From a virus: a stretch of 64,000 bases of DNA. The position numbers and the translations under genes are program-made. Below are positions 41,437-41,730 of the stretch, in pieces. Positions within the stretch are counted from its first letter, which is position 1, and the number at the start of each line of letters is the position of its first letter. The notes beneath the pieces were generated by a model. That model saw nothing but the letters and a program-made list of their open reading frames with translations, was not told where the DNA came from and did not search any database. The DNA lies in the IMG/VR virus record IMGVR_UViG_3300019762_000007, positions 1 through 64,000 of that record; one strand, given 5' to 3'.

Positions 41437-41730
41437 ATGAAAATAGAGGATAAAGTAAAAAAGCTAATAGCTGAAAAGTTAGACTTAGATTCTGAAGATG
41501 TTAAAGCTATCACAGATAAAACAACTTTTGAGTTTTTAAAAGCAGATGAATTAGATATTATAGAAATAATAATGGATTGTGAAAAAGAGTTCAATATTAT
41601 TTTTACTGTAAAAGAAGATACTAAAATTGCTGGTACGGAAAATGCTACAGTACGAGATTTAATAGAAATTATTAAATCTCATTTACAAAACACCAACAAA
41701 GTTAACAACGCTAGTGACTCTAAAGAGTAA
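41437..41730 (+). CDS. Acyl carrier protein homolog lacking the phosphopantetheine Ser (DSLD to DELD)
   Basis: IEDKVKKLIAEKL...F..LKADELDIIEIIMDCEKEFNI...TVRDLIEII aligns by eye to AcpP. Confidence 0.8.
   Translation: MKIEDKVKKLIAEKLDLDSEDVKAITDKTTFEFLKADELDIIEIIMDCEKEFNIIFTVKEDTKIAGTENATVRDLIEIIKSHLQNTNKVNNASDSKE

Follow-up and report, generated by a model that had tools for sequence, protein, structure and literature searches.

A Crassvirales-like phage encodes a predicted acyl carrier protein fold with glutamate in place of the phosphopantetheine serine

Acyl carrier protein (ACP) is among the most connected proteins of the bacterial cell, and its carrier function depends on PPTases, which transfer phosphopantetheine onto the hydroxyl of a Ser at the N-terminus of helix II. 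We wondered what a phage might gain from an ACP in which this very Ser is replaced. The question is raised by an open reading frame (ORF) at positions 41437-41730 (+) of the window, by which we mean the whole stretch of 64,000 nucleotides that was analysed (positions 1 to 64,000 of the virus record IMGVR_UViG_3300019762_000007). A first-pass annotation of these letters had described the product as an AcpP-like protein carrying Glu at the Ser site and had proposed a non-loadable mimic that blocks host lipid or lipid A synthesis, or decoys an ACP-dependent defence or toxin.

The ORF runs from an ATG to a TAA and encodes 97 amino acids (sequence including FLKADELDIIEIIMDCEKEFNI). The decisive residue, Glu38, which aligns to Ser36 of E. 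coli AcpP, is specified by a GAA codon at 41548-41550 (+). As had been claimed, this codon lies at least two changes away from any Ser codon (two from TCA, three from AGY). The identical 97-residue protein is recorded in three sources (JGI, Logan and ENA), on three contigs in all. Logan contigs of three other runs spanned the codon with 0 differences (X2 record 4, X3 record 9 and X4 record 14), the contig of X3 record 9 covered the whole gene, and no sequence variants of the gene were found among the contigs of other runs. The runs that support the codon are all 2018 microbial-mat metagenomes of low depth, perhaps from one campaign and not fully independent. The first-pass annotation had allowed for reads revealing an error at this site, and the check on contigs returned the same codon each time. 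That the true residue is Ser, disguised by a sequencing or assembly error or by a non-standard reading of GAA, is vanishingly improbable: besides the agreement among runs and sources, an error would need two base changes, and we know of no genetic code that reassigns GAA. An assembly error at the Glu38 codon is thus excluded for practical purposes.

Is the product an ACP at all? The search with the Pfam PP-binding profile (PF00550) that had been suggested at the outset matched residues 5-59 with 23.1 bits, above the gathering cut-off of 20.8. The PHROG family phrog_5934 ('acyl carrier protein') matched with an E value of 3e-8, and more than 40 solved ACPs in the PDB matched with E values of 1e-6 to 1e-3. 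An AlphaFold2 model of the 97-residue protein, built with 124 relatives as input, reached a mean pLDDT of 84.2. DSSP places its helices at residues 3-14, 19-24, 38-52, 58-66 and 72-91, and the four-helix bundle, the long loop I and the short helix III are all present in the model. The top Foldseek matches in the PDB were all ACPs (4etw_B and 9ka6_C; TM by target 0.90, rmsd 1.2-1.3 Å, 35-36% identity), and the ESM Atlas's own model also falls on ACP clusters, some of them viral. Compared with E. coli AcpP (PF00550; 1L0H/1L0I/4ETW_B), the fold is the same at a TM of 0.9 and an rmsd of 1.3 Å; sequence identity is about 35% with AcpP and reaches 52% with environmental ACPs. Structure prediction with ACP partners had been put forward as a check, of which the part that concerns the fold itself gave an ACP. 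By homology and by model, then, the ORF encodes a true ACP homologue, and the AcpP-like identity given by the first-pass annotation stands.

The HMMER alignment with E. coli AcpP pairs lkadeldiieiim with LGADSLDTVELVM without a local gap and so sets E38 on Ser36. In the AlphaFold2 model, E38 is the first residue of helix II. This recognition helix (residues 38-52, ELDIIEIIMDCEKEF; 41548-41592 (+), delimited by DSSP on the model and by the AcpP alignment) keeps its acidic residues, D37, D40, E43, E49 and E51 corresponding in the gap-free alignment to D35, D38, E41, E47 and E49 of AcpP. Both the exchange at the Ser site and the intact helix II, as first described, are therefore borne out. Among the aligned relatives E49 is invariant, D37 and D40 are nearly so, and the Ser of the Ser column is itself nearly invariant.

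As in AcpP, both helix II and the pI are acidic, and, like apo-ACP, the protein would have no prosthetic group. Unlike AcpP, it carries Glu for the Ser of the DSL motif, which should leave it permanently unloadable, it has an insertion before helix IV, and a tail follows the ACP fold. The stretch between helices III and IV is 5 residues longer than in canonical ACPs; the loop AGTENAT (residues 65-71; 41629-41649 (+)) falls in a gap of the AcpP alignment and was picked out by the comparison of loop lengths. The C-terminal tail (41692-41727 (+)) was delimited by pLDDT in blocks, with values of 74 for residues 81-90 and 48 for residues 91-97, residues 93-97 lying below 50. The protein is also less acidic, with a net charge of about -8 and a pI of 4.7 where typical ACPs have about -14 and 4.05. 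In the helix III region it reads FTVKEDTKI against IPDEEAEKI in AcpP, and because acidic residues are lost here, docking to some ACP clients could be weaker.

Could the protein still be loaded? A holo-ACP has the Ser of a D-S-L motif at the N-terminus of helix II, and here Glu38 occupies that position. Because PPTases act on the Ser hydroxyl, the 97-residue protein is, by well-supported inference, not loadable with phosphopantetheine at this site, which upholds the 'non-loadable' of the first-pass annotation. The protein might nevertheless be a carrier that is loaded elsewhere, for example at Ser19 in LDSED, or whose Glu bears a different group. The sole point in favour of this idea is that Ser19, preceded by an Asp, opens a short helix in the AlphaFold2 model. 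Against it, the established PPTase site is the Ser at the start of helix II, and to our knowledge the similar helical turn in loop I of canonical ACPs is never modified. In addition, the 88.7-kb record, about 59% complete, gave no match to PF01648, PF01553, PF00501 or PF02504 (PPTase, acyltransferase, acyl-AMP ligase and PlsX), although host enzymes could serve. We consider a carrier of this kind very improbable.

We next turn to the phage itself. The window stems from a linear IMG/VR virus record of 88.7 kb with a CheckV completeness of 59%. Its major head protein shares 37-41% identity with the corresponding proteins of crAss-like Bacteroides phages, and Flavobacterium and Cellulophaga phages are also in the match set. 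In its sequence the phage is Crassvirales-like, and a host among the Bacteroidota is a reasonable inference. A structural block on the minus strand ends near 36.3 kb, and a block of small ORFs on the plus strand, which includes ORF 41437-41730, begins at 36.5 kb and has the look of a region expressed early or devoted to taking over the host. The runs in which this DNA occurs are microbial-mat metagenomes of 2018, with no RNA run listed among them. The ACP-like gene therein is far from fab genes, which again sets it apart from AcpP. Small ORFs of no assigned function adjoin it, and this context names no partner. The upstream neighbour (41043-41432 (+), 129 residues, phrog_6596 with a PHROG E value of 4.5e-23, no assigned function) has its stop 4 nucleotides before the ACP-like start; homologues of it occur in 55 phage records (Pseudomonas, Escherichia and others) without a link to ACPs. 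Downstream, the gene ends 41 nucleotides before a tRNA-like element (41772-41843 (+); Rfam tRNA, 37.1 bits, not called by ARAGORN) at the start of a stretch of about 1 kb that is poor in ORFs. The position directly upstream of a cluster of non-coding RNAs was thus correctly described. The 'host-mimicry island' that had been built on it is not supported, since adjacency to the tRNA-like cluster is the only link. No terminator was found between the gene and the cluster, and a promoter scan was uninformative (41 sites against 39.1 expected).

Further RNA features of the window are recorded here for completeness. Rfam tRNA matches lie at 41772-41843, 45065-45139 and 49411-49517, of which ARAGORN finds the second alone. 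This second tRNA has an odd anticodon loop (tttg) in ARAGORN, which leaves its amino acid undetermined, and the third match is 107 nucleotides long and thus carries an insert. A full-length group I intron (62021-62278, Rfam 50.4 bits) has ORF 60663-62051 on one side and ORF 62287-63057 on the other, and the two may be exons of a single gene.

How widely is this protein distributed? Among 1.84 billion representatives there was no relative above 50% identity, the next match after the protein itself having an E value of 3e-8. Because close relatives are missing, selection on the Glu of the window is not measurable (no dN/dS). A megablast of the region 38-46 kb against phages gave no match, no relative was found in IMG/VR with the 97-residue protein alone, and crAss-like phage records contained no matches to it. 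Judged from these searches, the protein is a lineage-specific singleton and not a conserved Crassvirales gene. A tblastn search of 50,697 phage records returned one match, a Ser-type ACP in MT835512.1 ('UNVERIFIED Bacteriophage sp.'). The matching stretch of that record (L001, 1953-4150) carries plsX-acpP-rnc, as is typical for chromosomes of Firmicutes, and the record probably contains bacterial DNA. ACPs from a word-based search had 44-59% local identity to the window protein, the highest value over the first 56% of the query, and where named they are labelled Desulfobacterales. The first 15 residues (MKIEDKVKKLIAEKL, 41437-41481) are identical in several ACPs so labelled (P0006, P0008 and others), in a search that selects for shared exact words; this could hint at the Desulfobacterales as the lineage that donated the gene.

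We then asked whether the exchange recurs elsewhere. In the Ser column of 191 aligned domains, the query included, Glu occurs 10 times and Asp twice, counts that come from a sample biased by the query towards Glu and are not a frequency. Glu-type (E-type) sequences were sought in IMG/VR and in bacterial genomes with the pattern ADE[LM]D. Three more phage contigs of IMG/VR (265 kb, 199 kb and 91 kb) carry complete small ACP-like ORFs that read LGADELD or LSADELD. The major head protein of the window had no match in these three phages, two of whose records are incomplete. Their E-type genes sit in different contexts, namely with an ORF that has a dUTPase domain (a fusion), among ORFs of no assigned function, and in a sugar-modification cluster with a metallophosphoesterase, a cupin and an APH kinase.

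Five Clostridia MAGs (Ruminococcaceae, Oscillospiraceae or Eubacteriales) have an ACP in the plsX-acp-rnc-smc locus that reads LGADE[LM]D (4992-5225 in L007, L009, L012 and L013, and 1983-2240 in L014, with L022-L025 also cited). In four of the five, a separate ACP reads LGADSLD. By sequence and position, the E-type of these genomes looks like a conserved cellular paralogue beside PlsX that is not a carrier. ADELD motifs in ACP-like domains were also seen, by eye, behind N-termini resembling signal peptides or lipoprotein signals in Planctomycetes and one Bdellovibrionales MAG, and behind a transmembrane and coiled-coil region in a Chthoniobacterales MAG (together L006 4614-5057, L011 4866-5303, L017 143-520, L021 4926-5261 and L020 4422-5264). 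Such proteins would be exported or membrane-anchored ACP folds that lack the Ser. Several further ADELD motifs lie inside larger ORFs of bacterial genomes.

A profile search with the E-types added three members to the metagenomic family of P0043 (P0185-P0187) and one further E-type, and the other 110 motifs among the newly listed top matches had Ser. All four members of the P0043 family read [AT]DELD. On these alignments, Glu at the Ser site is rare overall and conserved inside several diverged families, and the Glu of the window, which finds the same substitution in other phages and in bacteria, is no accident of one sequence. Conserved neighbours were found in the Clostridia and among none of the E-type loci outside them. 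Since the contexts of the phage E-types differ from each other, one common target is not implied.

For cultured phages, a tblastn search with the E-type P0039 gave 16 records. The Acinetobacter 'phage' MD-2021a was excluded and two near-identical Erythrobacter phages were counted once, which left 14. The excluded record (L032) holds a bacterial-looking fabD-fabG-acpP stretch. Ser is kept in 12 of the 14 ACPs (Bajun, P018-4, pf16, GAP32, CBB, Harreka_1, Nekkels_1, ZS04/R6L, BCSR5, RSL1, phiXF1 and ctuI7215), indicating that phages also use ordinary ACPs. Those of Cellulophaga phage Nekkels_1, Olleya phage Harreka_1, Ralstonia phage RSL1 and Cronobacter phage GAP32 resemble the window protein in being small, phage-encoded and surrounded by hypothetical genes, some of them in phages of Bacteroidota. 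Unlike the window protein, the Ser-retaining phage ACPs keep DSLD and could be loaded. The two remaining records have Asn at the Ser site in the ACP homologue of Vibrio phage 277E43-1, and Glu in Aeromonas phage Aswh_1 (MH791414.1), whose rIIB (414 residues; L045, 1480-2724) has an N-terminal ACP-like domain with the motif LGLDELD. The domain reads LGLDELDVIELVM, with the Glu-bearing ACP fold fused to rIIB.

An acidic residue at the same position was found separately in Salmonella phage Vi01, which extends the survey of the DSL position in phage ACPs that the first-pass annotation had called for. Its 'acyl carrier protein' Vi01_122c (NC_015296.1, 80640-80957, minus strand; L054, 1241-1558), assigned by annotation and by a PF00550 match, reads LGGDDLDMIELIM, where Asp takes the place of the Ser. 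It is probably misannotated as a carrier in the public record. Vi01_122c (LGGDDLD) and the window protein are both phage-encoded and related to PF00550. Both also have an acidic residue where the Ser would stand, a helix II that is conserved, and a lengthened loop ahead of helix IV. Unlike the window protein, which comes from a relative of the Crassvirales, Vi01_122c belongs to an Ackermannviridae lineage; the two match locally alone (28% identity over 46 residues), and the tblastn search of the 50,697 phage records with the window protein did not find proteins of the Vi01 type. On sequence grounds the window protein shares the trait of the Vi01 type and does not belong to its family. A literature search found no paper on Ser-less ACPs in phages; for Vi01-like phages, a 'putative acyl carrier protein' is listed as an annotation and once among proteins detected by mass spectrometry.

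Has the exchange arisen once or several times? On a maximum-likelihood tree of 175 rows and 76 usable columns, in which 5 of 170 branches are supported, the Ser/Glu label needs 19 changes. The nearest rows to the window protein are Ser-types, on branches that are almost all unsupported. An AU test on a 64-row subset did not reject monophyly of the E-types (p-AU 0.237), and no other column separated the E-types after correction for multiple testing. In an exploratory comparison, the length of the loop before helix IV did differ. The distance from the Phe of helix II to the Val of helix IV exceeds the usual 14 residues by at least 2 in 10 of 21 Glu/Asp rows versus 17 of 139 Ser rows (Fisher p 4e-4), in a 175-domain alignment that is a biased sample and with relatedness ignored. 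In ACP structures this loop and the Ser site share one end of the bundle, and the extended loop between helices III and IV might cover the entrance of the pocket.

These observations bear on whether the gene has any function. One possibility, which we rank third among the explanations, is that a captured acpP lost its Ser and persists as a functionless remnant, either decaying or neutral. The singleton status fits a remnant, as do the lack of direct evidence of selection in the lineage, a Pfam score barely over the threshold and the missing matches in crAss-like records, which show that the gene is not conserved in the Crassvirales. What speaks against decay is an intact ORF with a confidently predicted fold and a conserved helix II, the at least two nucleotide changes that led to precisely the residue conserved in several independent Ser-less families, and the identical sequence in several samples. 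We therefore consider a remnant quite unlikely.

How, then, might an ACP act that is not loaded? We propose that ORF 41437-41730 encodes a non-acylatable binding mimic of the host ACP that is aimed at ACP clients of the host, a reading that we regard as an even call. The phage would have captured a bacterial type II ACP that kept its four-helix fold along with helix II, the acidic recognition helix. With Glu in place of the Ser for 4'-phosphopantetheine, no holo-ACP would form and no acyl chains would be carried. Expressed from the plus-strand block of small ORFs, presumably early or during host takeover, the pseudo-ACP would act purely by protein-protein binding and would occupy the ACP-docking site of at least one host client, be it Fab enzymes, PlsX or acyltransferases, LpxA/D, AcpS or a client outside lipid metabolism. 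The carboxylate of the Glu at the N-terminus of helix II may also stand in for the negative charge of the phosphodiester in holo-ACP. In the canonical complex an Arg in the partner recognises the negative charge of phosphopantetheine (PMC8547962), which is why the Glu could act as such a phosphomimic.

Support for a binding mimic comes from the ACP homology and fold, the position of E38 on Ser36, the acidic residues of helix II and the confirmed codon. It is strengthened by the persistence of Ser-to-Glu/Asp in several diverged families (P0043, the five Clostridia MAGs, Planctomycetes, the three IMG/VR phages, rIIB and Vi01_122c), and by a phage record in which no PPTase, acyltransferase, acyl-AMP ligase or PlsX suggests a carrier role. 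There is also precedent for harm by an unloaded ACP. According to PMC4736557, which cites Keating et al. 1995, an obligate apo-ACP (S39A) suppresses growth of E. coli, and glycerol-3-phosphate acyltransferase is inhibited by apo-ACP. A Ser-less ACP whose role is purely one of binding is known from Plasmodium, where the residue in place of the Ser belongs to the interface (PMC8547962). A decoy that blocks lipid synthesis is plausible. Against a binding mimic we count the lower acidity, the singleton status, a context that offers no partner, the differing contexts of the E-types and the Ser in 12 of the 14 cultured-phage ACPs.

The binding could also be directed at the phage's own proteins. In this second-ranked explanation, the ACP-like protein is an adaptor or stabilising subunit of a phage-encoded protein, a small acidic partner in the way that host ACP serves LYR-motif proteins, MukB and Tn7 TnsD. 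ACP-like domains are fused to other sequences in several phages, as in the rIIB of the Aeromonas phage and in the Ser- or Asn-type ACPs with C-terminal extensions of pf16, P018-4, 277E43-1, BCSR5 and CBB. The Foldseek matches include complexes in which ACP is a structural subunit (NFS1-ISD11-ACP, 5usr/8tvt; MukBEF, 9gm6), and stabilisation of Tn7 TnsD by ACP is described in PMC12372198. The mitochondrial ACP of Plasmodium falciparum is a further precedent: it kept the ACP fold after loss of the phosphopantetheine Ser and has a purely binding role, with the replacing residue in the interface (PMC8547962). It differs from the window protein in that Ser is replaced by Phe, a hydrophobic residue with a co-adapted partner, where the phage has an acidic Glu. 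The Plasmodium protein is moreover a eukaryotic, organellar subunit of Isd11-Nfs1 that is independent of phosphopantetheine and has a known LYR-motif partner, whereas the window protein is phage-encoded and known from sequence alone. An adaptor is hard to reconcile with the absence of a conserved phage neighbour of the E-type genes, with the adjacent phrog_6596 gene being common in phages that have no ACP and with the window protein being unfused, and we judge this explanation unlikely. We thus retain the mimic aimed at host clients as the preferred reading.

A broader proposal is that ACPs with Glu or Asp for Ser are widespread, repeatedly evolved phosphomimics of holo-ACP. Early in infection, phages would deploy them to jam or redirect ACP-dependent machinery of the host, be it the making of lipids or lipid A, a regulator or a defence. 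The versions of bacteria would either be retained next to plsX or be exported, and the window would hold an example from the Crassvirales lineage whose loop caps a useless acyl pocket. We regard this generalisation as doubtful.

The Ser-less ACP is real and recurrent, an unstudied form, not a carrier, of a protein that is otherwise very well known. In unrelated phages, in Vi01 and in bacteria such proteins are still annotated as 'acyl carrier protein', which is misleading and leads to their being counted as auxiliary genes of lipid metabolism. The paralogue next to plsX in Clostridia hints at a cellular role of ACPs that are not carriers. The window copy adds a Crassvirales-like example, a modest gain given a singleton whose context names no target. 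If our reading is true, a natural and permanently unloadable phage ACP would be a simple way to disturb membrane synthesis or other ACP-dependent processes of the host, and a ready-made probe of the interfaces between ACP and its clients.
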